In this document: piece by piece, positions 5,621-62,480 of the stretch | Layout of the letters: every line of letters starts with the position of its first letter | Position numbering within the stretch: the stretch's first letter is position 1 | Assembly: GCA_964187785.1 (NCBI GenBank) | Contig: OZ076409.1 | Location: 21,144,001 to 21,208,000 of the forward strand | DNA length: 64,000 nt | Direction: 5' to 3' | Source of the DNA: Amphiscolops sp. MND2022 | Taxonomy: Eukaryota | The notes under the pieces: model-generated | What the model was told of the DNA's origin: nothing | Database searches by the model: none | The model's input: the letters and a program-made list of their open reading frames with translations, nothing else | Made by a program: the position numbers and the translations under genes

Positions 5621-5729
5621 CTAACACTACATTCTGCATTGAACTAATGCGAAAGATCCAAAAAAGCTGAGAACACAGGCATGGAAATCGACAATCATTT
5701 TCCAGCTCCAGAATCTGATAATATTAATG

Positions 5730-6778
5730 ATAATAATAATAATAAAGACTTTAGGGTTGCCCCAAGGAATTTGCATTCCCGGTTGTTTATCATGAAGTCT
5801 AGTTTCTTGATGTTTTTGCAGTTCGAACATGCACAGGACAGACGCCATGAGCAAATGTTAGCAGGATCGTAGTGTTTGCGGAAGTAAGTCCAGTAGACAT
5901 GTAGTATCTCTCTCTTCGGGTTTTCTGTGGAGTGTACGTCTCTGCCAATTGCGCTGCCCAGTTTGTTTGCGAGGTAACAAGCTCTTGTCCAGAAATCATT
6001 TCCTTCTTTAGCTGTATTGCACTGACGTGTTTTGAATACCGACAGATTTTCAGATCTCGTGGGTTGTGTGACTTTGGTAACATTCAGGTAATTTGTCCAG
6101 TTCAAGTTGTATTTCTTATGAATGATGTCTACGAGTGGTAAAAGTACATGTAATTCGTGGTAAAGTGAAAGTGGCAGTAACTTGAGTCTCAGCAGAGTTT
6201 CTTTGTAACTTTCTCTCCGTCCAGTGATCCACCTCACAGCTTTTTCTTGCACACTTTCAGTATGTCTGAGGTCGGTCTTTGAGGCTTTCCAGAGAACTGC
6301 TCCGTAGGATACGATGGGAACAATGTAGCTTTTGTACAAGCTTTTCTTCGAAGTTTCGGAAGTTTTCCATGAGACATTTCGCTTTATTAAGAAGAGTGAT
6401 CTCACTGCTTTTTCACATCGTCTCCCAGCTTGTTCTTTCCAGGTCAGCGATTTCGAGACTATGATGCCTAAATCTTTTTCAACTTCTGCTTGCTGAATGG
6501 TAATTTCACTCATTTTGACAGTAGATGTCCCTTTGAAACTGACAGTTTTGCACTTTTTCAAATTTAGGCTCATCATGTTATTCTGGCACCATTTCCATAT
6601 CCGATGGGCATCAACTTGGAGAGTGACTGGATTTGTGGCAATTACTTTATAGTCATCAGCGTAACCAAAACACTTGGACATGATCTGCTGTGGGAGATTG
6701 TTAATGAAGATATTGAAGAGCATGGGTCCGACTATTGAGCCTTGCGGTACTCCACTAAGAACATTTTCGACATTTGAC
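5730..6778 (-). mobile_element. 5'-truncated CR1/L2-type LINE, RT C-terminal part (3' piece; the 5' piece is at 22157-22303)
   Basis: GVPQGSIVGPMLFNIFINNL, YADD and EKDLGI RT motifs; (TTA)n tail at ~5730-5745. Confidence 0.92.
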
Positions 6779-8822
6779 TGTCACAACCCGCTCCCGGTCA
6801 GGATTTTTCTTGCTGCGGGGGAATTCCGCAGTTCTCAAGAGGAAAAGGCCACGGAAGAACAATGCAAAGCTGAGTATAAGTAAACCTTAATTAATGACTT
6901 ACCTTTCTTCAAACTGCAGCACGAATTAAATTTAACGGAAGCGCAACGTAAAATATCCAAAAGTGACTTTAAGCGAAATAGAATTTCCGGTTTAATGTTT
7001 TCACACGCAACCATTTTATTACTTCCGGTTTCGACTACTGAAAATTCCATGCCAATCTAAATACTAAAAAAGAAACATTCTCAACGCTGGGATCAATTTT
7101 TCTTTTCTCCACACTAAAATGAAAACATTAAAACATTATTTAATTTCGCGATTCCAACGGAACACTTACGATCTAAAAAAAAAGACATAGAAATAGTATA
7201 GTAGATTTGTTTTCAAAGTTTGGAGTAGCTGTAAAAAGCCACTCAAATCACAGTCAAGTAATTTGAGCAAACCTTTACATCAATATGACGGCGTCGCTCG
7301 AATAAGCAAAATGCTGGTGTTTCTAATTTTACGGACCAATAGCGTTATAGCAAAAACCGGCTATTTGCGCTCGAGCTAATAAGAACCATTCTAGTGACGT
7401 CATTAGGAATGAATTTAAAGAAGGCGAATCACTCCGTTCTAGCGCCGCTAGCAGCTAAGAAAATTATAGTTAATCTTAATACGTACGGAGCGCTTACGGG
7501 ATGAATTGTAAATCGATGAAGTTATACCCAATCTTAATACATGTAGAACAATAATGGTAAAATCTGAAAGACAGGAACTATCCTAATACCCCAAAATGCT
7601 CCTTAAACCACGCAGAATTGCATCTGAATATTCAAAATATCATAAGTTTTAAATATTACCTCCCCGAATTTTACCCGTTCTATAGTTAATTGAAATGCTC
7701 GTGCTGCAGGCTGAAATAGAGGAAATGAATGAACAAAAGGTGCTTTCCTTCAATTCAAGGAAAAACATTTGTTGTGTGATCATTGTGTTACGTTTATTGG
7801 GCTGAATGGTTTAGCTATTTTTGTTGGAATGTATGTAAAATCAGAATTGGAACAATGTTGCATCAAATTATGTGTTAATTCAGTCCTTGAACTGCACTGG
7901 TCATTTTCCAGCATCATTTGTTCCTTCTCAGAATACCTTAGTACGTTAGTTCAAAATTCATCCGCGATATTTCCGTAATCAATTTTGCTTGTCATTCTTT
8001 TGCCGCGAAAGGAAACTTTTCGCTAGTCACAAAGTGAATCACTGTTCACGCCCGCGTGTTTTTCTCGATGAGAATTCAACTAGACAACTATTTTGCCGCC
8101 TTTTCGCGATCATACCGGAAATGAGATTAATGAACAAAAATGATTTCAACAAGTATCCCGTAAGGGAGCCGTGACTAGGAATTTTAAACCGTGAACAATT
8201 AATAGAAGGGTTGGAATAATAAGGATAATTAAGCTTTTTTGATGAACAAAACCGATTCTAAGGATTCCTAGGAAATTTTAGGTGAGGAACAAATGATGCT
8301 GTGAAAGTATATATACCTAGGGATTTGTAAAATAAGTCAATCTGTTTCTTAATATGCTACGTTAATACTTCGTTTTGAAAACCATATTTTCTTTGAAGAA
8401 TTCGAGTTTTCCAAAGAACAACCTTTCACTTCTACTAAAAATGACTACAAGAAGCCAGAAAAGAAAAGCTGTTGAGGAACAAGTCTCTACTGAAATTGAG
8501 ACTCCGATACCTGAGACTAGTCAGAACCTAAACCCCGTAGCGGGAACGAGCAAATCCCCTAGAGTACTCACTGAAAATCTAGAAGAAATCAAGTCTTCTC
8601 TAAGGAAAGAGATCGTGTCTGATCTTACTAAAATCTTGGCTGAAAACCAAAAGTAAATGTTGAAACTAATAGCTCCTACGTCTAAAAAACAACCCATCAT
8701 AACAGCTGCTGAAGAAACAGACTCTGAGTCCAAAAGCGTTCCGGAAAATGCAACCTCGACTCCAATTAAAGCCAAAACTACTGCGACTACTCGTAAAATT
8801 ACACCGGTGAATAGTCGTAACA
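6779..8822 (+). repeat. 5' LTR (2044 bp)
   Basis: TGTCACAACCCG...TAGTCGTAACA; collinear with 20106-22151; TATA-like TATATATA at 8308-8315. Confidence 0.96.
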
Positions 8823-9850
8823 TGGTGACAGGAGTCCTCAATGACTCCACAAATCTGGGGAAAAAGAAGACGCGACCACACCGTCCACAAAGTCTGCCAC
8901 CCAATGAATGACCCTCAACATCAAGACTACTATTCGCTCCTCAGCCGGAAATCCATCCACCACCTCAACCGCTTTCAATGCCAAAAGCACTCACTGCATC
9001 TCTACCTGTGTTTGATGGTAAGTCCGAAAAATTCGAACTTTTTGAGGACTTATTCCGAAACAACGTTAAAATGTACCCACATCTAACAGAAATTCAAAAA
9101 ATCAACCGCTTCCACTCACTACTACGAGGCAATGCACTACAAGCATTTTGCAACTTAGACGATGCCAAAAAAGATAACTTAGAGGAGGTAATTACGGCAT
9201 TCAAACGGCGCTTCGGAGATTTTCAATCTTCGGCCAAGGCGAGATGCGAATGGGACTCGCTACATTTTGATCCAACCAAGCAAAAACTACATGAATTTTT
9301 GGACACACTACAAAAAACTGCTAAAGAAGCGTTCGGCTCAGAAGCACAAAAATTTATAGACAAGGCTATATACGCCAAAATCCCGGAAAAAGAGATTCTT
9401 AACCGAGCCTACCTCGAGGACAAACTCGATAACGACATTGTCCTACATCTTGAACGAGAGATGCGCCTCAATGGTCTAGGAACCCCAGACGAAACCACGC
9501 TAGTACCACTAAATACGGTCGACGTCGTCAGCCCGGAACCAAAAAAGGAAGTCAACCAACGAGGAAACTGTTTCCACTGTGGCAAATATGGGCATTATAA
9601 AACCCAATGCCGTAAATTACGAAAAGGCCGCTACTATGAAACTAAAGCACAGAACGGCATTCCCAACACTCACGAACCACCCAAACCAAAATGCGACACT
9701 TGCGGAAAACTCCACAAAACTGAGAACCGCTGGTACGGAGCTAATGCGGCGAAGGACCCTAGGAAGAAACGACACGAGTTCGCCACACCCACGAAAAAAA
9801 AATCAACGAACAACCAAACCCCTCTATTGAAATCCAGCCAAAAAAACTAA
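8441..9850 (+). pseudogene. gag: gag starting inside the 5' LTR; two in-frame stops (8654, 8909)
   Basis: ORFs 8375-8656, 8657-8911 and 8978-9850 share one frame. The 3' LTR has GAA where the 5' LTR has TAA, so the first stop is a point mutation. Zinc knuckle CFHCGKYGHYKTQC plus a second CDTCGKLH motif. Confidence 0.88.
8823..8835 (+). promoter_or_regulatory. Primer-binding site (tRNA-primed, possibly Leu)
   Basis: TGGTGACAGGAGT immediately after the LTR-terminal CA; TGG pairs with tRNA CCA. tRNA identity is tentative. Confidence 0.7.
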
Positions 9851-9900
9851 GAACGCCGCGCCTCCGCCGCTTCGGGGAAACGGTAGACGCAAGGCGTACA
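9841..9900 (+). promoter_or_regulatory. Putative -1 ribosomal frameshift signal (A AAA AAC followed by a GC-rich stem)
   Basis: Slippery heptamer at 9841-9847 directly before the gag stop, followed by ACGCC...GGCGT complementary segments; similar signal at ~45235-45290 in the related element. Confidence 0.6.
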
Positions 9901-12900
9901 CATTAGAAGACCCCCCAAATAGGTATGAAGAAGACTTCCTCACAGAATGCAATGAGGAACCCACCCAAGACTGGCAACGTCGATGGAACGTAGGCATGAT
10001 ACTTAGACATAATGCCCGACACCCAGAAGACCCAACACCACTGCCCCAATGGATAACAGAATCACCCGATAACTACGCGACACTAAAAAGACCCAACCAG
10101 AATCAAAGACCGAACGCATCTACATATATGATAGAGACTATAGATGTGATCCCTGGGACGAACCAAACATCTATGACACAAACAAACTCTCCTTTAAAAT
10201 TCAAGTTTCAAATCCTCAGGCCCAATTCGCCGAGGGCACAAACTTACCATCACCACCGTCACCAATCCTCAAAAAGACAACACAGTCCCCGCCAGTACCC
10301 GTCACCACCCCGTACACACCAATAGATGCAGAGAAAATCATCTGCTTCGAGGATAAAACAATATGGACACAACAAGACAGAGAACAACGGAGGAAAGCCG
10401 ATCATACAGTGTCACCCCCAACAACAGCACCTGAATTACCAACTCAAGACAACAACCATGAAGACGAAGAAGTAACGGAATGCCCACAACAACTGCCATA
10501 TGACCTCAACATCATAAAAGAATGCATACAGCATGACAAAGACGACGACTACATTCCGCTAATGTCAGCAATTACCCTCAAAAGAATGCTCTTCATCCCC
10601 CTTGACTTTGAAAACACTAGAATTGATGCACTAGTTGACTCGGGAGCCTACATTAACGTCATCAGCGAAAGAGACGCAGACAAGATACAAACTGAAGCCA
10701 ATGCAACCATAATTGCGAAGGCACTTCCGCCCCCTTTCAAGATACAATATGCCAACACCGAACTTGAAAAAGCTCGAGCAACATACGCAATGAAGTTCAA
10801 AATCGGGGACTACGCGTTCGAAGAGACCTTCATCATCATGACCAAAACACCTTACCCAATCATCGGCCTGGCATTCCTCCGGAAACATTCCGCCATCCTA
10901 GATACTGCACAAGGAACAATAGACTTTCCTAAAATACAAATCACCCTAGCCTTAAAGGATGAAAGACAAAAGTGCAACCCCAAACCCATCACCATCAAGA
11001 CGGAAGAAAAACACACCATACCAGCACAAGCCACGCGGATTATCCACGCGTCCATTACTGCAAGTAACGACCACCCAATAACTGGGACAGTTCAACCTCT
11101 ACCACAGTTCGACGAAAATGCAAAACTTATAATAGCCCCAGCAATAACAACAGCTCGAGACAAACGAGTCGCGATAAAAATAGCGAACACCACAGACTTC
11201 TCCTATACAGTAACGCCACATACTAAACTAGCAGAATTACAAATACTGAAACCTTAAGAAATGAATATGATACGAGCAGTAGATATAGCAGCCCTCAATC
11301 TACTCACCGAACACAACGATGTTGTCGCGTACGTTAATGCACTAATGCAAGTTGATTCGCCAGAACAAACAGAAGAGAAATTCTGGTTCCCAACTCCTGA
11401 AAATCCCGGAGACGAATCGGAACACACACCCATCCAACAGCGCATTCTACGAGAACTACGCGAACTACAAAGATCAGAAGAACTAGACACCAAACAAGAC
11501 GAAAACTCCAGATCACAATTCCTCTCATTGTTCAAATGGAATGATATGTTAATAACGGGAGAAGACCGTGAATATCTAGAGTCCATACTAGTTGAATTCA
11601 ACGACATCTTCGCACGTCACCGGCTGGACATCGGAATGAACAACCAGTTCAAGGTACGCCTAACTCCCAAAAACGACAAGCCGGTGTACACACAAAGCCT
11701 ACCAGTACCCATCAACCTCAAAGATGACCTAACTGTAGAGCTAGCACTGATGCACAAATACGGGATCATCACAACCCTACCCTTCTCCAAATACGCCAGC
11801 CCCATCTTCGCACAACGCAAACCCAAGACTTAAGGAAGATCAATGCACTCATCTCAGATGACTATATCAACAACAACCACCCCAGCAACACCCTCTCAGA
11901 TGCCGCACAACACCTAGCGGGGAAGCAGTTGTTTTGCAAACTCGATTGCTCACAAGCCTACCACTGTCTCCAAATGGCAGATCAAAGGTCAGTAGAACTC
12001 CTTGCATTTAGTTTTGCTAGTAGAACGTTTGCCTATCGTAGGCTAGCCCAAGGACTTAGTAGAGCCTTGTCAGCCTTTTCGAGCTTCAAGCGGGAATACC
12101 TCGACACCGTCATCAAAGCAGACCAGTGTGCCCAATATGTGGACGATATCGGGATTGCCGCTAACACAACGGAACAACTCATCAAGAACATCAGAGCAGT
12201 CTTCAAATGCATCCGCAAAGCCGGACTAAAACTCACAATCGAAAAATGCCACTTCGGTGTCACCCAAATCGAATTTCTTGGAAGAACCATCACACCTCAC
12301 GGAGTAGCACCGCAAGACCACAAAATCACCAACTTTTTGTCTTGTCAAAAATCAGATTTCCCCGATCAAAGAAACAAGTCCAGAAAAACATTGAATTCAT
12401 CAACTACTACAGAAACTACATACCAAGACTGTCCGAAAAGATGATTGGAATGTACGAACTCCTAAAAGCAGATGCAAAAATCACCATATCAGAAGAAATA
12501 GTCGACAACTTCAAAGCCATCAACGCAAGCCTAGCGGAAGCATGTGGACTAGCCCTCAGACAACCAGTTGCGGGAAAACAATACGTACTAATGACGGACG
12601 CAAGTTTCCGAGCATCAGGCTACGCTCTAATGATAGAAGAAAACGACGATAAAAAACTACTCTCCAAACTAAAAACTTTCGCACCGGTTGCTTTTGGTTC
12701 CCGCGTATTCTCTCCGTCACAACTAAAAATGTCAATATACTGCAGAGAGTTCCTTGCCATTTACCACGCATTCCTAGAATACAGTCACATCTTATGGGAA
12801 ACGACATTACCAACCCTAGTATTAACAGACAACAGATCAGTAACACGATTCTTCCAAACAAAGACAACGCCACACGCCCTCTGGAACGCCTGTGACTACG

Positions 12901-15034
12901 TACTACAATTCAAGTTCCGCATCATGCACATAGCAGGGTCACAAAACACAGCAGCCGATTTTCTGTCTCGACTGGAACTAACGCCAAAAGAAAAGGTTCA
13001 ACTCAAGCTACGAGACGACATTATAACGGCACCCATTGAAGTCAACCTACAGTCCACAGATGTTGCCGACGAAGAACAACTTTTCTTTCTACCAGATGAG
13101 GAAGAAGAATCAGAACAAGAAGTTTTTGCGAGAAAAGCCCTTAGCAAACAACGAGCAGTGGACGAAAAAGAGCAACAAAACCTATCCCCCGAAATAACAG
13201 AAACAGTCCATATACCGCTCAATACAGCAGTCTACGCATTCGGAGCAATCAAAGAAAACGCCCGAATACGCAACGAACAAGATGCGGATCCGATACTAAA
13301 AGCGCTGAAACTGCGCCTACTCCATGAAGAATACGACAAACACCTCCTTAAAACTGAACCCAGAGGACGAAACCTACTACGCCATGAAGAAAGAATAATA
13401 GTCAAAGACGGAGTTCTCATGCGCAAATACTACGGAGAAGATGGTACAGTCACGCATCACCAAATTCTCATCCCGAAACATATAGTCCCAGAACTTCTAT
13501 CAACCCTACATGGGAAAACGAACAAACACCCTGGTATAACGAAAATGATACAAGAAAGCCGAACCAAAGACTACTACCCAGGGCTAGCACGGAAGATCAG
13601 AGCTTGGGTAACCAACTGCCCTGACTGCATAGCCAACAAACGAATCGACACGCGGCAAATACGTCCGAAAATGCTAAGCAACACAGAATTCACGTTTGAC
13701 CCGGAGAATTGCTTAGAAGTAGACATTCTACCTAATCTACCTTCATCAAATGGATACAGACATATCAAAACAATGATGGACGTATTCTCCCGCTATCTCT
13801 TCGCATACCCTACACAAGACATGACAGCACGAACAGTAGGACGTTGCATAATAGACGTAATGACTCATCATTGTTACCTACCTACGGTCATCCTCATAGA
13901 TAAGGGATCACAATTCCGATCAGACGTCGTAAATCAGATCACGCAGACACTTGACATACGGATTAGCCACGCGTCGACAAAACGTGCACAAACAATCGGA
14001 ATACTTGAAAGAACACCTGCATCCCTAAAAACGTCCCTCAAAATATTGACGGGAGAACACCGTTCAATGTGGCACAAATACGTCCAAATCGCAGTTATGA
14101 ACTACAACACAAGCTACCATGAAAGCTTAGGCTGTGAACCGACAACAGTAATTCACGGACGCATACCGTACAACATTCTGGATATCAAGCTGGGACTCAA
14201 GCCAGAATGGAAAAAAAAGACGCCAACGAAGACCTAACGGACGAACTACAGAAACAAATAGCCGAAATTCATCAATCGGCTAAGGACAACTTCATGCAAT
14301 CATACTTGAAATATAAGCGATATTATGATAAAAAAGCGACAGCAACGCCATTGAAAATCAATGACTACTGCTACGTCCTGAACCCGAAGGCTGATAACCA
14401 GTCAATGAAATTCGCTTTAAAAGATTGCATCTGGACGGGACCGTACATAGTGGTCAAGGTCCTTTCTAATAATAGTTACGTCGTAAGACGAACGGGAACA
14501 AGATACACACAAACCCTCCAAAAAATTCGCCTAAGGCTATATGCGCCCAATCAATGAGTACCTGACGTAACAGTCAGTGCGGAAGACCAACTTCCAGACC
14601 CCGAGGTTAAAACAACCCATGACGATTGGTACGCGCAAGCTTGGGAAACCGAATTCGGAGAAGTTCTGTTCGGAAACTCATCAGAAAAGGAAAATGAAGA
14701 AGCTACCATCACAGAAGTACCAACCAACGACGCAACTACAACGGAAAATGAAGCAGATATAACAACTGCAATCGAAACTTCAACTGAAAATAACATATCC
14801 CCCGGAGACAGTACGCCATTCATCTTCGACGTTAGCGATAACCCCTATATAATGATACCACCGCCTATGGAAAGCCCCCCTATACCGCCTAATATACCAC
14901 CTATAGGTGTCGGATACAATCGTAGGAAAACGGGAAGATATAATTTACTACCTAACCGTAGACCTAATGCACACCCTGATTTTCGGATGCTTGACGCAAT
15001 CATCACGGAGGAAAGTTCCCAAACTCCAAGCTGA
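9880..15034 (+). pseudogene. pol: pol polyprotein (aspartic protease, RT, RNase H, integrase), disrupted by stops and frameshifts
   Basis: Protease ALVDSGA (ORF 10409-11257); RT KLDCSQAY, LAQGL, YVDDI (11261-12340); RNase H LMTDAS, TDNRS, ADFLSR; integrase HHCC (HGKTNKHPG...CPDC) and D-D-E (EVDIL, IDKGSQF, LERT) in 12207-14237; GPY motif WTGPY in 14207-14557. Confidence 0.95.
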
Positions 15035-15205
15035 ATAAAAACAATTAGTGAACCAAACCGAACCGGGGTGGCAACGTCAATTTTCTCTTTTCACCACAAT
15101 AATCAATTCAAACCAACTAACTAAACAACATAAAACAAAGGATACTGGCCAAGAAAGGAAGAAAAACAATACTAGTTTCAGAAAAACAATACTAGTTTCA
15201 TCAGT

Positions 15206-18200
15206 TCACATCAATGACAAAGTCCAAGGCTTCTTTATCCTATGACGAACATCAGGATCGTCATCTTTTGACGACTTCTTCTTGTTTTTTGGCGCCACAG
15301 AACTACTCGCAGCCCCTTTATTACTGCTCGTTGTTGACCCTGACGCAGACCGCTTACCTCCCACCTTGTTCTTCCCAGAACCCGAAGTTTCAGCGCCGGC
15401 AGCAATGACATTTGTTGACATCTGTTGGGCACAAGCAAGTCGGTTCGCTTTATTCATCTCCACATACTGAGTCTCACATGATTTCCGACGTGCCAACAAA
15501 AAGGCACCATACAACCGGCTATAATGAGAGATGAAATCTGAAACACTCCCCCCACAAAATCGGCCCACAAATCAAAATTCGGAGCAACATAGAATACGCC
15601 ATCATTACTGATAGCACCTTGCACAGCTTCCATAGTAAGCTCAGTGAAGAAGGACTGGTGCTCATACCCCGGACTTAGCACGTAGCTCTGCACAAGGCGC
15701 AGACATTCTTGGAACTTGGCCTTACTCAGCTTACTGCCACTTAGGTCAAAATTCACAGTCGGATAAACTGCGCGAGGTCTTCCAGTCACCAACACACAAA
15801 ACTTCAAAACGCGACAGACGCGATGTCGGGCCAAGAAACTAAAATCCCGTAGTAGCCAGCTAACCATGTTGGAAATTTCACTTGCCACTCCATAGACCGT
15901 TCGTGCTGGTTCCGCTTCTCCACCACATAACTGCTAAATTCTTCAACTGCAGCCTTAGAATCATCTGAGGACAGACAGCCGCACGACTCTAGAACACGAC
16001 AGAGGTCCGGGAACAACTGGAAGACAAGCTGACCATCACCCTCCAGCAGCAGCTCAGGACAAAAGCTATAAATACCCCGTGACACACGCGATGAAGCACT
16101 TGGACCTTTCAAGATGATACTGACCAGTCGATCCATAAACTCTCGACATCGAACGCGGAAAGTCGGAAAATCACTAGTTTTCCCAGCAACAACTCCCGGC
16201 CAAAATCGCAGTTTGCCAAAAACACATCGTCAGCAATGGAAGGAAAAGCTGCGGCCTTCTCCTCGTCCATGAACCCGTCCCAATCGTTCAGGCTAGGCAG
16301 ACTCTCTGTAGCTCGGGTTTTCAGCAAAAGGCAATAGATAAAATGACACAGCTCACCATAGCCGTGAAAAGCGTAGTCTTCACGCCCCCGATGAAGCTTC
16401 GTAAAATTGATGTGGACTGAAACAACAGGAAACGATCAACAACGAAACTAAGCTCACTTTTAGGCATCAATCTGGCAACAGAAAGAATCAGTCGAACAAG
16501 CATTCACAAACTACAAAAACCAATCAACCAGGCCATACTCACATGTATCTAGCACCAATCGCAACAACCCGAAACGATACGGCGTCATATTGTCAGCAAT
16601 TATGTGCCAGTCTGTCCCCTTCATCTACAACCAAACACCATCTAAACTTTGCAAATTTACTAGAAAAAAAAACACAGAAATGTGATCACATAAAAACAAT
16701 AAACTTGGCTAACACTTTCAGCTTTTCCTTTCGCGTCCGGGTGCCCGGTGCAACGAATGAAAGGACGTATGCATGGCCACAGCTCAATGAATTCGGTCAA
16801 CAGTTGACGATAATCCATAAAATCAACGGACCCTTGCCGGATACATTTGCGCAGTACCACCTTGCCCTCTGTCCAGTCCTCATACAAGGCAGTTTTCAGA
16901 CGCTGCAACAAATAATCCACTAGCGTCATCACGTTTACCATCCCGAAGATGTCATGATCTGCCTGCTGCACGCACCGCAGAAACACCTGCTCATCAAACT
17001 TCTCATATATGACGAAACGACGGGCATCAGAACGGTCATCCTCTAGCACGCGAAGTAATGATGGACTCCCTCCGAGAATCGCAATGGGCAACAAGGTCGA
17101 ACCCAAACTGCACACAATGCGGGACAAGGGCACCAACTCTGGAAGTGGCATGGCTTGATCTAACGACTCACACCCAATACAAATCTTCATCAGATGCTTG
17201 TCATCCCAGTATAGAACGTAGCATCGCTCCACATTGTCTTCTTTCTCGTACTGCAATCCATATGCACGAAAGCCAGAAACACTACTCAGCATAAGGCGTA
17301 ACACCCGCGGAGCCAAGCCTTGGTACAGAAATGCCTAAAACAGATAACAGTCAAAACGTCCCATACCCTACCCACTTAATACAAAAAAAACAGCCACATG
17401 CGAGTATTATACGGAGTGCAAAAAACTACAAAACGAACAAGCACATACTCACCACAGTCTCAGAACGACTCCAGTTGAGATTAAACTGTGGTCCTTTCTC
17501 CTTCGGTAGTGTCAACAGGAAGTGGCTCCAAAGACGACGCAAAAGCACAAAATCGCCACCACTACACAAAAGCTCACAGACGCAGCCCACCAGTGTCATG
17601 AAAGGGACCTTCGACTCTACGCGGGAATGCTTCGGCAGCAAATCCTCAGGAAAAGGATAGCCTTCACTCAATTCCTCAAATGCCTTCGAACGGTATTCGG
17701 CCAGCTGACCCTCAGACAGCTCCATGGGTTCCATGAGCCTATTGAGAACAGGCAAGCTCATGTGAACGCGATATGTCAAGTCTTTAAACCAGTGGCTATC
17801 AGACTGAAAATGTCGCGCAAACTCTCCGGAGCCCTGTGCCTTCATGCCCACGTCCCGTTTGCACACACGACAGTGAAAATGTGTCGACTGCCCACCCTAT
17901 CAGCAAACTCGTCAAGACCTATAAAAACACACAAAGCAAGACTAGTACATTTAGAATGGACACAACTGAACGGTACTGATACGAAAGACAACACAAGCAC
18001 TTAGCTACAGACAAAACACCAAATAACTCACCAGTCTGTAAATGAGTCTCCACATGATCGGCGACCTGACGTCCAACTTCACGAACAACGTCCGGACTCA
18101 AACCAGTGCCAAAGATATGCGCCCCCTCTGGATCGTCTAGACCTACACAATTAAGAAGTACATCATAACTGAACAGTACTATATGCCTACCAACAAAAAA

Positions 18201-19172
18201 AAAACAAAGAAACAAGGACAAACAACAAAAACTTACTAGTCCAACCACCAGAAGCGGGTGTCAGTGGAAAAGGAGGAGGCAATGGTTTCTTCGCACGCTT
18301 GGGCAGGATCCCAGAGCCCCCTTTCTTCCGAGAACCACCCGCTTTGGAAGCTAACAAAATATGCATATCACACTCCGAAACTCGACGAAAATAAAACCCA
18401 GTTCACTACCAATACAATAGATTCAAGACTACTAACCCGTTTCCTTTTCGGAGGGCGGATCGGTCTCACCTCCTTGAGACTCACTGTCACTGTCCTCGGC
18501 CTGCACAGCGCGAAAACGCAAAGGTAAGGCCTGAACTCCCGGAGCCTCCCCGGCAGCAGATGAAGGAACCACAGGAGAATTAGAAGGAGCAACAGCTGAA
18601 GAAACATCGAGCACAACAGTATTCGAGAGACCAACTAGGGCCTCATGCACAGAAAAGATTGGCTCAGTAGAAAGTACGGTCGAAACTGGGGGCAACGGGC
18701 CCGATGCAGACGGAACAACCTCGGAAACTGCACCAGAAGAAATAACAGCTGATGAACTGACAGGTTGAGTTACTGAAAAATCAAGACCTGGTTCGACGCG
18801 TCAGAGTTGCGGGTAGGACTTCAAAGGCTGATCACCAAAAATAAATAGTCCGATAGCACAAGGAAGGCAGAAAAGATTTTTACCAACCTGAAACAGAACG
18901 AACAAAAGCCGGCTCCGGACGGACATCATTATCAGTGTAATTGAACACTGCCTCGTTCCCACTAAGGAAGCCTCCGGCAGGTACGATAGGAGGTGCGTTT
19001 TCTCCATCCATTTAAGAAACTGCCACAAAAGAATCTTCAGAATGGTCTGAAACAAAGAAAATACATTACCCAAAATTAATCCAAATTCACCATGTTGGAA
19101 GTTCATAGTTTTCAAAAGGATGCAAAAATGGATCAAATTAGTTTGAAATCCTGAAGGAAAAGAAAGAACCAT
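15206..19172 (-). CDS. Spliced antisense accessory gene inside the Gypsy element, with BED-like CxxC...HxxxxxH zinc finger; carries some frameshifts
   Basis: GT-AG introns at 18436-18351, 18236-18143, 18031-17919 and 17452-17335 join ORF pieces in phase (...EKET|ASKAGGSRKK...GGWT|SLDDPEG...LQT|GLDEFAD). After a 1-nt frameshift comes HFHCRVCKRDVGMKAQGSGEFARHFQSDSH. Further ORF pieces run from 17334 to 15206. Start and later exon borders approximate. Confidence 0.72.
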
Positions 19173-19465
19173 TTTTAAATCTGTGACGTCACACGGATCA
19201 TCATCGATAAGAAATTGGCGACGCCATGACGAAGTTCAAATTTAGAACTTAATTAAACTTTTATTCCTACGGTTCAGCCAATCACAACACAGATGGAAGC
19301 GAAACGCTTTCCGAAGATGAAACGAACCGGAATGAAATAAAAATAACAGCCAATAAGAATGCAAGAAAATTACGAACGAAAGAAAGTTAACCTTTTCACT
19401 TGCCGCACAATAATCGCAAAGAAAAGTTTGTTTAAAATAATTTCTCCAGAGCCAAGCTTAAAAGA
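19173..19465. promoter_or_regulatory. Putative internal bidirectional promoter
   Basis: ~290 bp between divergent ORFs; palindromic TGTGACGTCACA (CRE core) at 19182-19193 and CCAAT at 19278 and 19350. Confidence 0.45.
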
Positions 19466-20200
19466 ATGAGCAATTACGACTTGGTTATAGACATCTCTTC
19501 AGATGAAGAAGAACGAACCAACACCATGAGGCAGAGCACCCCCAGTAAAGCGCTTCCTATCAATGTAATAACCACGCTGAACCTCTCCGGATCATCATTA
19601 GAAGCAACAAAAGGGAGTGCAGGAGAGATGATGTCGTCTATTAACGACCTTAACCTATCGGAAATTCCCGCATCCACCTTTGAAACAATTGGTTCTCCGA
19701 GGAAAATCACATTCAGAGCGGTAAGCCCTGGAGAAGAATTCATGGTGGAAAGTCAAGCTGCCACCTTGTCCGACGAAAGCTACTTTGAAGAACCGGACAC
19801 TCCCCGTCAATTGCCCTCACTACAGCCTGCAGTAGTCTTACGAGACGTGACCAACGAAGAACTCCCGTACAACGGACCGCCTGCGAAAGTTGACAGACTC
19901 GACGACTTGATGGAACCGCTAGTAGAAGAAATTGAAAATCCTTACGGCATAAACCTACAAAACAGCCTGGAATACAGCCCGTCGTGCGGACGTGGGACTC
20001 GCTTCACTTCTACCAAGCTGACGAGAGCACGCAAGCAGCCGGTGCTCATCACTAGAGAAATTCCGCACTGCCCCAGACAGTGGACAAGTGGATTTAGAGG
20101 CGCCCTGTCACGACCCGCTCCCGGTCGTGATTTTTCTTGCTGCGGGGGAATTCCGCAGTTCTCAAGAGGAAAAATCCACGGAAGAACAATGCAAAGCTGA
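19466..20200 (+). CDS. Extra acidic/Ser-rich ORF (244 aa) of unknown function running into the 3' LTR
   Basis: Uninterrupted ATG-started ORF; the last 95 nt lie in the LTR; no recognisable env features (no signal peptide or transmembrane segment). Confidence 0.55.
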   Translation: MSNYDLVIDISSDEEERTNTMRQSTPSKALPINVITTLNLSGSSLEATKGSAGEMMSSINDLNLSEIPASTFETIGSPRKITFRAVSPGEEFMVESQAATLSDESYFEEPDTPRQLPSLQPAVVLRDVTNEELPYNGPPAKVDRLDDLMEPLVEEIENPYGINLQNSLEYSPSCGRGTRFTSTKLTRARKQPVLITREIPHCPRQWTSGFRGALSRPAPGRDFSCCGGIPQFSRGKIHGRTMQS

Positions 20201-22151
20201 GTATGAGTAAACCTTAATTAATGACTTACCTTTGTTCAAACTGCAGCACGAATTAAATTAACGGAAGCGCAACGTAAAATATCCAAAAGTGACTTTAAGC
20301 GAAATAGAATTTCCGGTTTAATGTTTTAACACGCAACCATTTTATTACTTCCGGGTTCGACTACTGAAAATTTCATGCCAATCTAAATACTAAAAAAGAA
20401 ACATTCTCAACGCTGGGATCAATTTTTCTCTTCTCCACGCTAAAATGAAAATATTAAAGTTTTATTTAATTCCGCGATCCCAACGGAACACATACGATCT
20501 AAAATGGAAAAAGACATAGAAATAGTATAGTAGATTTGTTTCCAAAGATTGGAGTAGCTGTAAAAAGCCACTCAAATCACAGTCAAGTAATTTGAGCGAA
20601 CCTTTACATCAATATGACGGCGTCGCTCGAATAAGCAAAATGCTGGTGTTTCTAATTTTACGAACCAACAGCGTTATAGCAAAAACCGGCTTAATTGCGC
20701 TCGAGCTAACAAAAACCATTCTAGTGACGTCATTAGGAATGAATATAAAGATGGCGAATCACTCCGTTCTATCGCCGCTAGCAGCTAAGAAAATTATAGT
20801 TAATCTTGATACGTACGGAGCGCTTACGGGATTAATTGTAAATCGATGAAGTTATACCCAATCTTAATACATGTAGAACAATAATGGAAAAATCTGAAAG
20901 AGAGGAACTATCCTAATACACCAAAATGCTCCTTAAACCACGCAGAATTGCATCTGAAAATTCAAAATATCATAAGTTTCAAATATTACCTCCCCGAACT
21001 TTACCCGTTCTATAGTTAATTGAAATGCTCGTGCTGCAGGCTGAAATAGAGGAAATGAATGAACAAAAGGTGCTTTCCTTCAATTCAAGGAAAAACATTT
21101 GTTGTGTGATCAATGTGTTACGTTTATTGGGCTGAATGGTTTAGCTATTTTTGTTGGAATGTATGTAAAATCAGAATTGGAACAATGTTGCATCAAATTA
21201 TGTGTTAATTCAGTCCTTGAACTGCACTGGTCATTTTCCAGCATCATTTGTTCCTTCTCAGAATACCTTAGTACGTTAGTTCAAAATTCATCCGCGATAT
21301 TTCCGTAATCAATTTTGCTTGTCATTCTTTTGCCGCGAAAGGAAACTTTTCGCTAGTCACAAAGTGAATCACTGTTCACGCCCGCGTGTTTTTCTCGATG
21401 AGAATTCAACTAGACAACTATTTTGCCGCCTTTTCGCGATCATACCGGAAATGAGATTAATGAACAAAAATGATTTCAACAAGTATCCCGTAAGGGAGCC
21501 GTGACTAGGAAATATAAACCGTGAACAAATAATAGAAGGGTTGGAATAATAAGGATGATTAAGCATTTTTGATGAACAAAACCGATTCTAAGGATTCCTA
21601 GGAATTTTTAGGTGAGGAGCAAATGATGCTGTGGAAGTATATATACCTAGGGATTTGTAGAATAAGGTAATCTGTTTCTTAATCTGCTACGTTAATATTT
21701 CGTTTTGAAAACCATATTTTCTTTGAAGAATTCGAGTTTTCCAAAGAACAACCTTTCACTTCTACAAAAATGACTACTAGTAGCCAGAAAAGAAAAGCTG
21801 TTGAGGAACTAGTCTCTACTGAAATTGAGACTCCGATACCTGAGACTAGTCAGAACCTAAACCCCGTGGCGGGAACGAGCAAATCCCCTAGAGTACTCAC
21901 TGAAAATGTAGAAGAAATCAAGTCTTCTCTAAGGAAAGAGATCATGTCTGATCTTACTAAAATCTTGGATGAAAACCAAAAGGAAATGTTAAAACTAATA
22001 GCTCCTACGTCTAAAAAACAAACCATCATAACAGCTACTGAAGAAGCAGACTCTGAGTCCAAAAGCGTTCCGGAAAATGCAACCTCGACTCCAGTTAAAG
22101 CCAAAACTACTGCGACTACTCGTAAAATTACACCGGTGAATAGTCGTAACA
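20106..22151 (+). repeat. 3' LTR (2046 bp)
   Basis: TGTCACGACCCG...TAGTCGTAACA followed by TSD TTGAC; contains an intact copy of the gag N-terminal ORF from 21770. Confidence 0.96.
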
Positions 22152-22156
22152 TTGAC

Positions 22157-22303
22157 AATACTCCATTCACGACTGTCCGTTGTTTCCGATTGAAAAGGTA
22201 GCTTTCGAAGAGGCGCAGTGCATTTCCACCTATTCCAAGTGCTCTCACTTTTTCAGGAAGCTTTTGATGGCAGACTTTGTCGAAGGCTTTCTCAAAGTCT
22301 AGG
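22157..22303 (-). mobile_element. 5' piece of the LINE split by the Gypsy insertion
   Basis: LDFEKAFDKVCHQKL...LFESYLFNRKQRTVVNGVL joins in frame to S-NVENVLSGVPQG at 6778 when the insertion and one TSD copy are removed. Confidence 0.93.
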
Positions 22304-23118
22304 TCTCAATACAAAATCACATTGAGAATGGATAATTGCTATTGGGTGTTCAGTCTGTGCTGGTACCTACATGGGACAAACTATCCGACACCTTTCAACG
22401 TGGCAAAAAGAGCAGGAAATGAACTCTCCTGCGAAGCTACTTTTTCAATCCGTCATTACCAAACAAAGCGGAGTCAATTCGAAAAGAAAAACGAAGATTG
22501 AAAATGAAACGAAACCATCTGATAGCTGAATTGGATAATAACCAAAAATACGGGTGGCTGTAAGTAGGTTGATTTTTTCTGGTCGAAATGACAGAGGTCG
22601 AACCTTTTGATCGAATTGCAGAGATCGAATGGAATGCGGTCGAATTTTATCGTATTTGATGTATGGCTCGGTCGCTTCGCTCTCTTTGCCAAGTAGCAAC
22701 ATTGAGGCATGGCCATTGGGCACGTCGCTCCGCTTCGCTTCGCTCCTGCATTCAGGGCACCAGGGGTATGTGAACATATCTGACTACGTTACGAAAATTT
22801 CGATCCGAGTTGTTTCGATCCCATTCAAAAATTTGGTATGTCGACCTGAGGACTAACTCTGATTTTCGATCCCGTTCCTTCGACCTATTTCCGCCCACCC
22901 CAAAAATAATAACTCGAGCTAGCCTCAGAGAAAGGACAGTGAAGTTGGATTCACGCCCTACCATTGCAACGTTATAATTTTGACTTATCTAAGTCTGAAA
23001 TCAGAGATTGAATAGCTCTCAGGTACGGATGGGACCCAAAGAGAACCTTCCTACTGTACATGCGGCGAAAGGTTTACCGTTTCGCATGCGATGCATTGAC
23101 CGAAAAGTGGATACATTC

Positions 23119-43679: not shown

Positions 43680-46600
43680 CGGAAAGTATATATACTTGTA
43701 AAATGTGAATTAATTTTAGTTGAAAAATTATTCAAAATACAATACACATCAAACCTCTCAATTTTCTTCACCTTGTCAAATAGTCTTAAGCTTTCTGGAA
43801 AACCCTAAACTAAAATGCCTGAGAGATCGTCTAAAAGAAAAGCGAGAAGTGATTCTGCTTCTAGTCCACAAGGCGAACCTGAGACTGCTTGTCAAAGGAT
43901 TGAGAACGTGCCTAGCATTTCTGAACGAGACTTCTCTGAGATATCAGAAAAGATTAAAAAATCCGTCATTTAGAGGACAAAAGATACTGAGATCGGACAA
44001 AGGGGGATCCTCAAAATGATTGAAAATCTATCCTCGAAAATAGATTTACTGTCTGACCGAACGCCCAGGACTGAAAATTCAGAAGCAGGCTAAATAGACA
44101 TTGAAAATCAAGCCTCAACATCCAGATCAACTGCATTAGGCGAGTTGCCCCCATTAGAGGGTCCCCCAAACAGAAATACCGCCCCGGTCGTCGAACCTGC
44201 CGCCTCCCAACCAGAAATATCCAGACCAAATGGTCAATAAATTGCTTGAATTACTCAGGAATGTTACCCAACCGAACATCGGACTTCCCAGACTGCCGAA
44301 GGCATTGTCAACAATCATGTCTACATTCAACGGACGAAATGACAAATTCGAGCATTTCGAAGACCTCTTCATGACAAGCCTCAAAGTATACCCTAACATC
44401 TCTGAGGAGGAACAAATCCATTACTTTCACTCCCTACTCAGGGATGATGCCCTCCAAACCTACCGCAATATGACTGACACAAATCGTGCCAGCTTAGAAG
44501 ACATTATTGCTACATTCCGACGCCAATATGTACCCCCCCAATTCATAGCGACAGCCAGCTGCAAATGGGAGCAATTCTACTTTGACCACACTCGACAAAC
44601 AGTCCAAGACATTTTGGAACAATACCAAAAACTAGCCCTGGAAGCGTAGAAGAGATGCCTGGAAGATGCCCCAAGTTTATCGAAACACCCTTCTACGCCA
44701 AAATGCCGACCCACCTGAAACGAATCCTCAACCAATCCCGGTTAGAAACGGAATCCTATGACATGATGGTCCAAAATTTGGAGAGGGAAACGGAATTAAA
44801 CGAGACCAACATAACGGGAGTACATCAAAACGAAGTACAAGAAACGCAACAAGCCCAAAACCGTCAGGCCTATGCCATGGATGCGGACAATCTGGCCATG
44901 TTGTCAAGAAGTGCCAAAAAGTAGCCTGCGAAGCTCGCAACCGAGGCAACAGAGTACCCAACAAATTGTCGAACCATGTGAAACATGTGGCAAGAAAAGC
45001 CACACAACACAGGACTGCTATTCGGGTGCCAATTGGGCAAATAGACCACAGTGGTGGAAAACCCCCAAGACTACGTCCTCAAACAACATTCTGACACCAC
45101 CACAACCACAAGGTCAGTACGTAAAAGAAAACTCACAAGTGGCCCAACCTCAATATCACAACCAAAGCAATCGGCCAAATGGGCTATCTACACCCTACCC
45201 AAATGAAAGCTCAACCCCAAGATCAAACCCATCCAAAAAACTAGTTTTGCCACATCTTCAGTTTGGGGAAACTGTCGAAACCCGACATTTCACAACATCT
45301 CAACCCCCAAACACGTACGATCACGAGGAACTTAATGAGCGCTAATGAGCGCAGCGAATCGACTGGCAGCGAAGATGGCAAATTCATGAGCTCCACAAAT
45401 ACAACCGCCAAACAACGACCAAAAAAGACTACCCACAATGATACCTTGACAACCCGACCGACTACAATACTCCAAAACGACCCTTACCAGAAAGCACCTC
45501 CCCCGAAACCAACATTCATGACCCCGACTTCAACTGTGACCCCTACCACAACCCCCAACTCTACGACAAAGATACTCTAACCTTCAAACAGCAAGAGTGC
45601 ACGTCATTCGAGGAGTACATCAAAAAGACCCGAATGAACATCTCAACAGAACCACGTCACAGACCAAAAAGTGTCCAACCAGGTCCCAGAATATAATCAG
45701 GACGCAGAACACATGACAGACATCTTAGCCGATAATACGAACCACAGGACCAAATCCATACTCAAAAACCAGGGATCCCATGCCACGGCTCCACAATCAC
45801 CACTGAAAGATCACCCAGTAAACCCCATCAGAGCTGGAACTATACGGTCTCCAACAATGAACGTGGCACCCGACTGCCACCAACATGAAAATCTCACCGG
45901 CAGGACCTCGACTGAAGCCGTGGACCCGGTCTAACCCACAATCAACACGGGGACAACAATCTCCAAACTGAAAACAAAGAGAATAAAGAGGTCTCTAATC
46001 TTAGAGCCCCCTCCCAGATCAGCCAGTCCGAAAATGAGGTCGCGGACCCCCGACCCATTGCTACTGACGCAACTAACATGCAGTCTGAATCCTCACCAGG
46101 TGTTGCAAACGACACACCGCAACAGTACAAAACTCAGTCCTACCCCGCAGACCAGACTGCAGAATACCCGAGACAAAATCACCTAGACAGAGGGACATTA
46201 ACCGCCCTCTTCTCTCTTACTAGGCAGTCTGGAAATGAGGAAACCAGAATATGCATACTACAACGCCCTAGGGGTCAATTCAGCAAAATTGACAAATCCG
46301 GACAAAAACTTGGACGATGGCCCAGAAATACAAGTGTTGGCGGGCCTCGGCCCAGACGGTGGCCTGAGATCAGAACGTTACTGAGGCCCCAGGCACTGAC
46401 ATAGCCGGCGACCCTACTACTTAATTTCAAATCTCCTCAACCTACGATGGACGAGACCAACATAACGGGAATACATCAAATCGAAGTACAAGAAACGCAA
46501 CAAGTTGCAAACCCTCCCAAACCGTCAGGCTCATGCCATGGATGCGGACAATCTGACCATGTTGTCAAGAAGTGACAAAAAGTAGCCTGCGAAGCTCGCA

Positions 46601-47430
46601 ACAGAGGCAACAGAGTACCCAACAAAATTGTCGAACCATGTGAAACATGTGGCAAGAAAAGCCACACAACACAGGACTGCTATTCGGGTGCCAATTGGGC
46701 AATTAGACCACAGTGGTGGAAAACCCCCAAGACTACGTCCTCAAACAACATTCTGATACCACCACAACCACAAGGTCAGTACGTAAAAGAAAACTCACAA
46801 GTTGCCCAACCTCAATATCACAACCAAGCAATCGGCCAAATGGGCTATCTACCCCCAAGATAAAACCCATCCAAAACCTAGTTTTGCCACATGTTCAGTT
46901 TGGGGAAACTGTCGAAACCCGACTTTTCACAATATCTGAACCCCCAAACACGTACGATTACGAGGAACATAATGAGCGCAGCGAATCGACTGGCAGCGAA
47001 GATGGCAAAGTCATGAGCTCCACAAATACAACCGCCAAACAACGACCAAAAAAGACTACCCGCAAAGATACCTTGACAACACGACCGACTACAATACTCC
47101 AAAACGACCCTTACCAGAAAGCAACTCCCCCGAAACCTACATTCATGACCCCGACTTCAACTGTGACCCCTACCACAACCCCCAACTCTACGACAAAGAG
47201 AATCTAACCTTCAAACAGCGATAGTGCACGCCATTCGAGGAGTACATCAAAAAGACCCGAATGAATATCTCAACAGAACCACGTCACAGACCAAAAACTG
47301 TCCAACCAGGTCCCAGAATATAATCAGGACGCAGAACACGTGACAGAAATCTTAGCCGATAATACGAACCACAGGACCAAATCCATACTCAAAAACCAAG
47401 GATCCCATGCCACGGCTCCACAATCACCAC
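43680..47430 (+). mobile_element. Truncated Gypsy relative: gag remnant with an internal ~1-kb duplication
   Basis: ORF 44230-44649 (LPKALSTIMSTFNGRNDKFEHFEDLF...FHSLLRDDALQ) aligns by eye with gag at 8978; CETCGKKSHTTQDC knuckle; 44801-45803 repeated at 46452-47430. 5' limit uncertain. Confidence 0.85.
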
Positions 47431-48031
47431 CATTACAATGCACAGGCAAGCGTTATTTGCTCAAAGCGCAACATAGTGCTTTCAATATCTCGGATTCCAC
47501 GACCATACCTTTAACCGTGCAAAATTGGCAAATTACGTCATTTGTCCCGGATTCCACGGATTTAGTCGTGGATTCGAGTAACAAACGCTTAGCTGTACGA
47601 ACTGTCGGCATGCAGCGGTGTCCCGGATTCCACAAAAACGTAAGTTTTGCGAAATGAACCAATCAGATTGCAGAAATCATAAAATTCCTGGATTCCACGA
47701 CTTTATGCTTGACGCGATACGCGGCATCTCTTCTTGAATTATTGTCAAGTGGAAGACTGAACAAACATAACATTATGCACTACTTTTCGTATATTATTTC
47801 AAAATGATTCAGACAATCACACCAATATCACACAAAATTTTTGTACTTTTCAGTTTAGTACCAGTTTTGAACAAACTGCCAGATCATCACAATCTGCCAT
47901 TATTTGATGACAGGCTTTTATTTTGGTACCAGTCATGAGTATCTCTATTCGTACTTTGGGACTTTTCGTGTCAATCAAAACAAGTTCCATTGATTTAAAT
48001 TGAATTAGTTTAAATTTTTCTATCTTTCCAA

Positions 48032-48033
<2 letters not shown>

Positions 48034-48075
<42 letters not shown>
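48034..48075 (+). repeat. (GTA)14 microsatellite, left target remnant
   Basis: Direct reading. Confidence 0.98.
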
Positions 48076-49059
48076 TTATTATGGAGGACAATTTAAAGTC
48101 CTTAGTAGTAGTTAATCTTGGGACAATTTAATGTGTTCAGGACTTTAAATTGGCATTTTAAATTGGAAGTGCCAAAAAAAACAACAGTGGAAGCACTTAA
48201 AAGAACAAAAATGGGCTAGAAGGTAGCTTTGGTCCCAAAACGTAAAAAGAATGTATTTGGAGATATTTTTCTTTCGTCAAAAAGAAAGTATTAAGAAAAA
48301 TTTTTCGAGGACAATTTGAACATAAATTTTAGCATGGGGACAAAATAAACACCACCAACTTTAAATTGGTATGTCGAGCAACCTCAGTAGCAACAGCTTG
48401 GTGAGACAAAGAATCCTTAGCAATGAATTCAAAAAGATTTTTTTACTTTGACGTGAAATTTCGTGACATTAAAAATGCTCCTCAAGCTGCGTGACAACCA
48501 TATAAACAAAAGAAACTGATGTCGGACAGAGATTGATGTTTTGAATAAAATCCAAAACATGAACAATTCAAGTCCATTCAATATATTTTTATAGAGGCTC
48601 TCAGTTAGGGGATCACATAGTGTCACCCATAACAAGACCCACGTCGAGAACGTGGCCTCTGAAGGGTCTCACAGAAAAATTTCAAAAATTCAAAAATTAT
48701 AAAACTTTGAAAATTACAAATTTTACAACGCAGTGAGATCATTGTATATTTAAGAAACAATGTAAAATTCGTGGACCACGTCATCTGATCTCCCCAGGTG
48801 CACCTTGTGGGGAATACCCCTCCCCCCTCCAACACGAAGGCGCTTTTGTTCTTGAATAAAAATATTTCACTGATTTTTTTTAACGTACAAACTTAGAGTA
48901 TTGTCTCTTTAACTGAGAATAGAATGCATTTTCGTGTTGGAATTACGAAGGGGAAAAATAGAAAACAAAGGGGATATTTAAACTTACATATACAGACTCA
49001 AAAAAAAGAGAAATCTGTTGAAATATTCACTAATTTTAGACGTTTTCCCCAGTTCTAAC

Positions 49060-62445: not shown

Positions 62446-62447
<2 letters not shown>

Positions 62448-62480
<33 letters not shown>
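62448..62480 (+). repeat. (GTA)11 spacer between elements B and C
   Basis: CAA-(GTA)11-TTAT junction. Confidence 0.97.

Follow-up and report, generated by a model that had tools for sequence, protein, structure and literature searches.

Why would a retrotransposon carry, on its opposite strand, a gene interrupted by introns, and where could such a gene have come from? The question is raised by a window of 64,000 nucleotides (nt) from Amphiscolops sp. MND2022 (assembly GCA_964187785.1, contig OZ076409.1, positions 21,144,001 to 21,208,000 of the forward strand; positions below are those of the window). A Ty3/Gypsy long terminal repeat (LTR) retrotransposon, delimited by self-comparison at 6779-22151 with 2-kb LTRs and a 5-bp target-site duplication (TSD), holds a minus-strand gene between pol and its 3' LTR. 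In this work, this antisense gene was found to be conserved and fixed in a large Ty3/Gypsy lineage with recent activity, in which its splicing is predicted, and to be exchanged between element backbones as a cassette. We hypothesize, at even chances, that a catalytically dead hAT transposase, now a fixed antisense gene of the lineage, acts as a nuclear DNA-binding accessory factor that keeps the element transcribed.

Reading the three frames together with an alignment of 20 other copies predicted eight exons, beginning with an ATG at 19011 and separated by seven phase-consistent GT-AG introns of 115, 86, 94, 113, 118, 89 and 126 nt (Table 1). The first-pass annotation of the window had counted at least four such introns of 86-118 bp, which is correct as an undercount, and the motif it had reported, FHCRVCKRD...EFARHFQSDSH, is present with its cysteines and histidines spanning 17872-17792. 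The splice dinucleotides are conserved in 19-21 of the 21 aligned rows, except for acceptor 2 (15/21 at the aligned column). At 20 further, more distant loci (L041-L060), 11 scored dinucleotides are kept in 18-20 of 20, the variable donor 2 and intron 3 being left out of this score. As a control, 72 intron-internal GT/AG dinucleotides were kept at a mean of 16% and a maximum of 70%. Core exons 5-8 are mostly more similar than introns 2-7 across subfamilies. From the N- to the C-terminus, the predicted protein comprises a disordered Ser/Pro/acidic region with a basic stretch, a zinc finger, a helical domain, the meander and helices of exon 6, a long stretch of helices and a basic tail. The window copy itself is broken: compared with 10 close copies it has lost 118 nt at 17885 and has single-base gaps near 16190, 15892 and 15560, and its spliced frame ends in a stop at codon 254. 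The spliced frame is open over 1039-1124 amino acids (aa) in 7 of 20 modelled copies, and in three of these seven donor 2 as modelled is non-canonical, so their N-termini are uncertain. Four distant relatives (P0072, P0079, P0106 and P0151) show an apparent extra intron in the exon 8 region, and intron positions thus vary further in the family. The spliceosome does not see antisense introns on the genomic RNA; the introns would persist through retrotransposition because they are antisense on that RNA.

The 1.07-Gb genome was searched with exon 6 (5677 first-look candidates, 150 scored) and with a distant full-length relative from a single-exon clade (11112 first-look candidates, 51 scored). 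Fifty-eight places were chosen by hand from the top candidate lists (20+10+12+7+6+3). In 58 of 58 the gene lies antisense within an LTR element, with the 3' LTR on one side and pol on the other (gag where one element has no pol), so the segment is present in every sampled copy of the family, and none of these places holds a stand-alone copy. Many of the elements are young, with LTR pairs 99-100% identical. In clade 2 the reverse transcriptase (RT) is ~70% and the RNase H-integrase part (RH-INT) ~53% identical to the window element. The entire core lies in one exon of ~830-900 codons in clades 2 and 3, and clade 2 has four upstream introns. Proteins of the family in ENA have best matches in this genome of just 36% or 49-53%, a divergence which suggests that the family is also present in other genomes; among metagenome contigs, 111 pattern matches gave no confirmed relative. 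Two unusual arrangements were also observed. A non-autonomous element (L194/L195, G000:C13:36187757-36205756) with LTRs 99.3% identical carries gag and an open accessory frame and no pol. In another element (L035/L036, G000:C2:57657171-57677170) antisense exons 1-6 are arranged in three tandem 2.5-kb units, and L040 is partly duplicated.

The ratio of nonsynonymous to synonymous divergence (dN/dS; pairwise Nei-Gojobori, natural copies) was 0.02-0.35 in 12 exon comparisons from four close pairs, and 0.10-0.21 between subfamilies where dS was computable. The comparison proposed in the first-pass annotation thus indicates purifying selection on the exons, which are conserved together with the splice sites. 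The ratio for pol was 0.01-0.03 in five pairs, and the antisense gene evolves faster than pol. In its position, its orientation, its occurrence at all 58 places and its dN/dS, the gene has the properties of an antisense accessory open reading frame (ORF) of the aORF-3R type.

The history of the gene is not that of its carrier. Over 29 loci, distances in exon 6 and exon 8 were correlated with each other (rho 0.73), and neither was correlated with the integrase end (0.03 and 0.08) or with a divergent sense ORF near the 3' LTR (-0.05 and 0.09). Integrase, sense ORF and LTR-gag were mutually correlated (0.66-0.73); these correlations are descriptive, the pairs not being independent. The sense ORF follows the backbone and not the cassette. 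Single pairs serve as examples: the integrase ends of L020 and L052 differ by 2% and their exons by 38-40%, and L074 and L084 have pol 98% identical and the accessory protein 66% identical. About ten or more deep allele groups, with 30-45% DNA divergence, occur on near-identical integrases. Because the gene tree is uncoupled from the integrase, the gene must have been swapped as a cassette, and sliding windows over 17 pairs placed the switch points at the end of pol and at intron 1 or the promoter. The conserved block after the pol stop, which forms one cassette edge, was not seen in seven clade-2 loci. An AACCG-type tandem motif within it (15053-15066) has a looser copy at 19323-19335 (+) in the promoter region; the two flank the cassette in direct orientation and are a candidate binding site. 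In the places read, no clade-1 cassette was found on a clade-2 or clade-3 pol, or the reverse. The first-pass annotation had mentioned neither the swapping of the cassette, nor the conservation of intron 1, nor the sense ORF that runs divergently.

The protein probably descends from a hAT transposase, as judged from sequence comparison. Comparison proteins were fetched with a motif which we take to mark one hAT subgroup; it gave 80 metagenome loci, 7 of 8 of whose long ORFs exceed the PF05699 cut-off, and one of these ORFs led to 120 relatives. A hidden Markov model (HMM) of the family matches intact hAT proteins at E about 1e-5 (160 sequences), with reversed decoys at 0.54 or worse. Alignment with hhalign from the finger to the first catalytic strand gave P=2.2e-4 (0.67 when reversed, 0.12-0.95 in ten column shuffles), and the finger alone a probability of 87%. 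In profile-profile comparison with the subgroup, z was 6.1 for the whole protein and 3.3 without the finger, values which 0 of 60 block shuffles reach. A S/T-K/R-T...L.P...F-S motif ahead of the first catalytic strand also aligns with hATs. Two further results serve as leads: for a full-length relative, Atlas listed clusters of DUF4371, FAM200/ZBED5, DUF659 and PF05699 at 0.81-0.83, under three unnamed clusters at 0.84-0.85, and Foldseek ranked Hermes first (E=0.15) for a poor exon-6 model (predicted local distance difference test, pLDDT, 44). The earlier proposal of a possibly transposase-derived protein is thus supported at moderate strength. The likeness to the hAT GCPCH/TRWL subgroup (PF05699; FAM200/ZBED5-like) and to Hermes (PDB 8edg) lies in finger spacing, collinear domain order and weak end-to-end profile similarity. 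Unlike them, the gene has no catalytic D or ER.FS motif and no terminal inverted repeats (TIRs), its disordered ends are longer, and it is borne by a retrotransposon.

Given this descent, the protein would almost certainly be catalytically dead. The first catalytic D is found in 0 of 51 family rows and in 118 of 126 hAT rows, the family having R, Q, E, H or K; ER.FS is found in 0 of 51 and 99 of 126, respectively. At the second catalytic D the family has a gap or G, depending on the alignment. The DDE residues that the first-pass annotation had proposed to check are therefore not kept, and neither the catalytic triad nor flanking TIRs with an 8-bp TSD, as in an active hAT, were found. On the other hand, the finger is the best-kept part of the protein, its four ligands being conserved in 37-39 of the 39-40 rows that have a residue there. 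Its spacing is C-x2-C-x16-H-x5-H, and the label "BED-like" was loose: the finger gave no zf-BED match (PF02892) at E<=1, and weak C2H2-type matches alone (E 0.03-0.8). As a separate observation, an intact metagenome hAT transposase (L135:260-2959, minus strand) has an OTU protease domain at its N-terminus (E 3.5e-14).

Several results weigh against hAT descent. Similarity past the first catalytic strand is weak (z=1.6; middle core -0.1, C-terminal half 2.1), the subgroup used for comparison had been selected through a preset motif and not by an unbiased search, comparison with hATs of the same genome (five intact classical ones and 12 fragments) detected no similarity, and no family member tested (exons and 56 relatives) had a Pfam hAT or zf-BED match. 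Pfam scans of the exons and full-length relatives gave no PF04195 (Transposase_28) match, and PDB sequence searches with three alignments gave none at all. Atlas on exon 6 returned ankyrin-like noise below 0.9. The exon-level AlphaFold models were of low confidence; common helical matches were all that Foldseek returned for exon 8 and VIA for both exons, Hermes not being among them, and homodimer prediction for residues 25-330 gave no verdict, the alignment being unused and the fold uncertain. No hAT donor element was found in this genome with PF14291 or the subgroup motif. The absence of a clear match in Pfam, PDB sequence and VIA fold searches, and the middle core at z=-0.1, would be expected if the protein were not hAT-derived beyond its finger and were instead a host gene that was captured or a protein with its own fold. 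We consider this improbable: the collinear similarity is significant without the finger, the pre-strand motif aligns, length and domain order match, and Atlas and Foldseek point to hAT. It could also be asked whether the gene is simply a nested DNA transposon passively carried along, in view of its hAT-like ancestry and of the 2215 first-look PF05699 candidates, by which hATs are common in this genome. That explanation is already contradicted and extremely unlikely, because selection is purifying without catalytic residues, no pair of inverted repeats brackets the segment (none around 14950-19500, where the first-pass annotation had raised the question of own ends), the 58 places hold no free copy, and the same position is occupied in clades whose RH-INT is ~53% identical.

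If the accessory-factor reading is right, a hAT transposon would have landed backwards in an ancestral element and lost its ends and catalytic residues, retaining the zinc finger and body. The antisense gene would be transcribed from an internal promoter common with the divergent sense ORF. In clade 1 this region has TGACGTCA and two CCAAT boxes, and in clade 2 it has other conserved blocks with TTACGTCA; the conserved motifs are of cAMP response element (CRE)-like and CCAAT type. The sense ORF has a conserved start and dN far below dS, and at its position clade 2 has an unrelated-looking ORF of ~210 aa. The different intron numbers of the clades would require either that introns were gained or that recombination with cDNA from spliced transcripts took place. 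By analogy, the likeliest job of the protein would be that of a nuclear DNA-binding regulator supporting transcription of the element, with its own promoter or LTR as putative target, for activation or anti-silencing.

The free assortment of the cassette from the LTR, the sense ORF and the integrase counts against this role. It is a poor fit to a VANC-like protein co-evolving with an allele-specific LTR site, and therefore the site would be invariant or within the cassette, or the target a host protein. In a rival view, the tamed transposase has host proteins or the integration step as its target (countering of restriction factors, tethering of the pre-integration complex, nuclear import) and does not regulate the transcription of its own element. 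The deep allele groups on near-identical integrases, free from the LTR, are what a host arms race or balancing selection would be expected to produce, and the antisense gene does evolve faster than pol. However, the co-variation that a direct integrase partner should show is missing (rho 0.03-0.08), the finger is the best-kept part, and dN/dS is below 0.4 everywhere tested; we regard this view as unlikely, though a serious competitor. Another explanation is an exclusion or addiction module, in which the antisense protein and the sense ORF, as an immunity or toxin-antidote-like pair, govern competition between lineages. All three clades examined have, at least in layout, two divergent ORFs with one promoter region. 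Purifying selection acts on both ORFs, and the pol-less element keeps the antisense gene open; yet the two ORFs do not co-segregate as a matched pair should, which makes such a module very unlikely. The reading as a nuclear regulator of transcription is the one we retain.

Intron 1 requires separate consideration. It is 85-95% identical between subfamilies, compared with 49-76% for the flanking exons and 40-74% for the other introns. A scan of 72 loci found a 7-nt palindrome loop with a closing stem, followed by a second palindrome, in 61 (39/47 in clade 1, 22/25 in clades 2-3); in the three clade 2-3 misses the element is visible by eye, one with an altered loop. Clade 1 has the loop palindrome TGATCA, clades 2-3 have TGGCCA, and the second palindrome is GACGCGTC, or AACGCGTT in clade 3. 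Both palindromes change symmetrically between clades, and the closing stems differ in sequence but pair (GG/CC, GGG/CCC, GTTAA/TTAAC, GTTAG/CTAAC). These features make intron 1 a candidate for a palindromic RNA pairing (dimerisation) signal, to which we assign slightly less than even chances. An internal signal is plausible because gag occupies the usual leader: the pairing signal of the genomic RNA may have been displaced into the intron as gag runs through that leader. Co-packaging through it would then drive cassette swaps, and a common loop within clade 1 would explain the swapping within that clade. Retroviral dimerisation initiation sites (DIS) form kissing loops. The candidate resembles these and PAL1/PAL2 of Ty1 in having a pair of short palindromes, of which one sits in a hairpin loop, within a conserved non-coding stretch; in the known cases the signal is 5'-terminal on the genomic RNA, whereas this one would lie 10 kb downstream within an antisense intron. 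Dimerisation of Ty1 via the short palindromes PAL1/PAL2 is described in the accessible part of the source (PMC6844567).

Against a pairing signal, covariation within clade 1 was not significant (79/500 shuffles), intron 1 had no excess folding energy (z -1.6 to +1.1), the strand is undecided (RNAalifold covariation term -0.52 for the genomic and +0.48 for the gene strand), and no Rfam family matched intron 1, three matches at E 1.3-1.7 being elsewhere. An HMM built on the clade-1 intron misses clade 2. A snoRNA, snRNA, spliced-leader RNA or known ribozyme was considered and rejected, with no Rfam match and box motifs not common to the clades. The conservation could instead reflect a DNA enhancer, or a splicing switch, for which the outer stem pairing over the donor would speak. 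The whole combination, in which a domesticated transposase serves as an intron-bearing antisense regulator with at least ten interchangeable alleles, while a dimerisation signal moved into intron 1 and its loop palindrome decides co-packaging and cassette trade, is rather doubtful.

The element that carries the gene has the properties of a Ty3/Gypsy retrotransposon: LTRs with TG..CA ends, a primer binding site (PBS), a polypurine tract (PPT), a TSD within 4-6 bp and the order protease (PR)-RT-RH-INT. Its two LTRs are 96.5% identical (Kimura two-parameter distance, K2P, 0.033), and TTGAC is duplicated at both flanks. It was observed that gag starts ~380 nt inside the LTR (8441-8822 and 21770-22151, plus strand) and that its frame crosses the PBS, as in clades 2-3. 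The element splits the reverse-transcriptase ORF of a long interspersed nuclear element (LINE; 5695-6780 and 21850-22305, minus strand), which continues beyond the insertion. Elsewhere in the window, a 1056-aa open frame (56128-59298, plus strand) has a SET domain (E 5.6e-10), 90-nt tandem repeats and a weak phage-integrase N-terminal match (E 0.13), and may be a mobile element that includes a histone methyltransferase domain. The regions 44000-48400 and 62447-62846 may be another element: they show a C-/A-skewed stretch whose direct repeats are spaced 1.6 kb, together with two 200-nt repeats at a distance of 14.4 kb and 37-nt tandem arrays.

Table 1. Features of the Ty3/Gypsy element and its antisense gene (window positions).
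Feature	Position	Strand	Remarks
TSD left, TTGAC	6774..6778	+	LINE reverse transcriptase ORF interrupted by element
5' LTR, 2.04 kb	6779..8822	+	gag frame opens within, near 8441
gag (zf-CCHC, DUF1759, Retrotrans_gag)	8441..9850	+	Pfam; stops in window copy
PBS (TGG...)	8823..8835	+	
pol, PR-RT-RH-INT, Ty3/Gypsy order	10073..15034	+	Pfam; several frameshifts and stops in window copy
Conserved non-coding 14-nt block right after pol stop	15053..15066	+	One cassette edge; 42/46 clade-1 loci
Exon 8	15206..16416	-	Helical region aligned to hAT insertion and C-terminal region, then basic low-complexity tail
Intron 7, 126 nt	16417..16542	-	
Exon 7, 82 nt	16543..16624	-	
Intron 6, 89 nt	16625..16713	-	
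Exon 6, 207 aa	16714..17334	-	Helix, three-stranded meander, helices; likely degenerate RNase H-like core
Intron 5, 118 nt	17335..17452	-	
Exon 5	17453..17918	-	C-x2-C-x16-H-x5-H finger (17872-17792), then helical domain; 118-nt gap at 17885
Intron 4, 113 nt	17919..18031	-	
Exon 4	18032..18142	-	
Intron 3, 94 nt	18143..18236	-	Missing from several subfamilies
Exon 3	18237..18350	-	Basic, Pro-rich; possible nuclear localisation signal
Intron 2, 86 nt	18351..18436	-	
Exon 2	18437..18772	-	Ser/Pro/acidic, rapidly evolving
Intron 1, 115 nt	18773..18887	-	Palindromes at 18829-18834 (hairpin loop) and 18795-18802; candidate RNA dimerisation/packaging signal
Exon 1	18888..19011	-	ATG at 19011; AT conserved in 21/21 and 20/20 rows
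Candidate bidirectional internal promoter	19184..19354	.	TGACGTCA at 19184, CCAAT at 19278 and 19350; putative function
Sense ORF, 244 aa	19466..20200	+	Ends within 3' LTR, divergent from antisense gene; no Pfam match
3' LTR	20106..22151	+	Purine-rich tract before it
TSD right, 5 bp	22152..22156	+	

Additional ORFs in antisense orientation have been described between pol and the 3' LTR of Ty3/Gypsy elements from plants and fungi, namely maize Grande gene23, rice RIRE2, Retand TRP28/PF04195 and Boty, as given in the accessible parts of two papers (PMC7264820, PMC11963269), which leave their function open; in the former they are said to lack similarity to other transposons and to be of unknown origin. 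According to these parts, the gene described here shares with them position, orientation, presence in most copies, conservation and a proposed role as nuclear DNA-binding regulator, and maize Grande gene23 has its own upstream promoter, where here the promoter is a candidate by motifs. It differs in having 4-7 introns, a length of ~1050 aa, no PF04195 match and a probable origin traceable to hAT transposase. Cassette swapping and an intronic signal find no description for the plant and fungal ORFs in the accessible text of both papers. From what is available of a further source, transposases are sequence-specific activators and become regulators by loss of catalysis (bioRxiv 10.64898/2026.08.24.746577). 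VANC of VANDAL, TnpA of Spm and FAR1/MUSTANG are, in the portions available, likewise accessory or domesticated proteins that arose from transposases through loss of catalysis and are sequence-specific regulators (bioRxiv 10.64898/2026.08.24.746577, PMC13547354); they act for the host or for DNA transposons of their own class, whereas here a class II enzyme would serve a class I element. Among animals, extra ORF3s were reported for LTR retrotransposons of bdelloid rotifers (env, GDSL, DEDDy; PMC5408684, in part). They lie downstream of pol with enzymatic or env-like products, and the accessible text has neither "intron" nor "transposase". No description of an LTR element with a spliced gene of hAT origin on its antisense strand was found in the full-text literature searched, which was mostly without subscription papers and had no supplements.

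With this gene, an antisense accessory ORF of an LTR element would gain a traceable origin, as a class II enzyme that a class I element has tamed, and the transposase-to-regulator route would be widened from hosts to other mobile elements. It would also show intron gain or loss in a retroelement gene whose introns ordinary splicing of the genome cannot remove. If the signal in intron 1 is true, it would be a rare internal dimerisation signal, and its compatibility would predict recombination between lineages. Thousands of natural copies, with many alleles on common backbones, allow clear tests.

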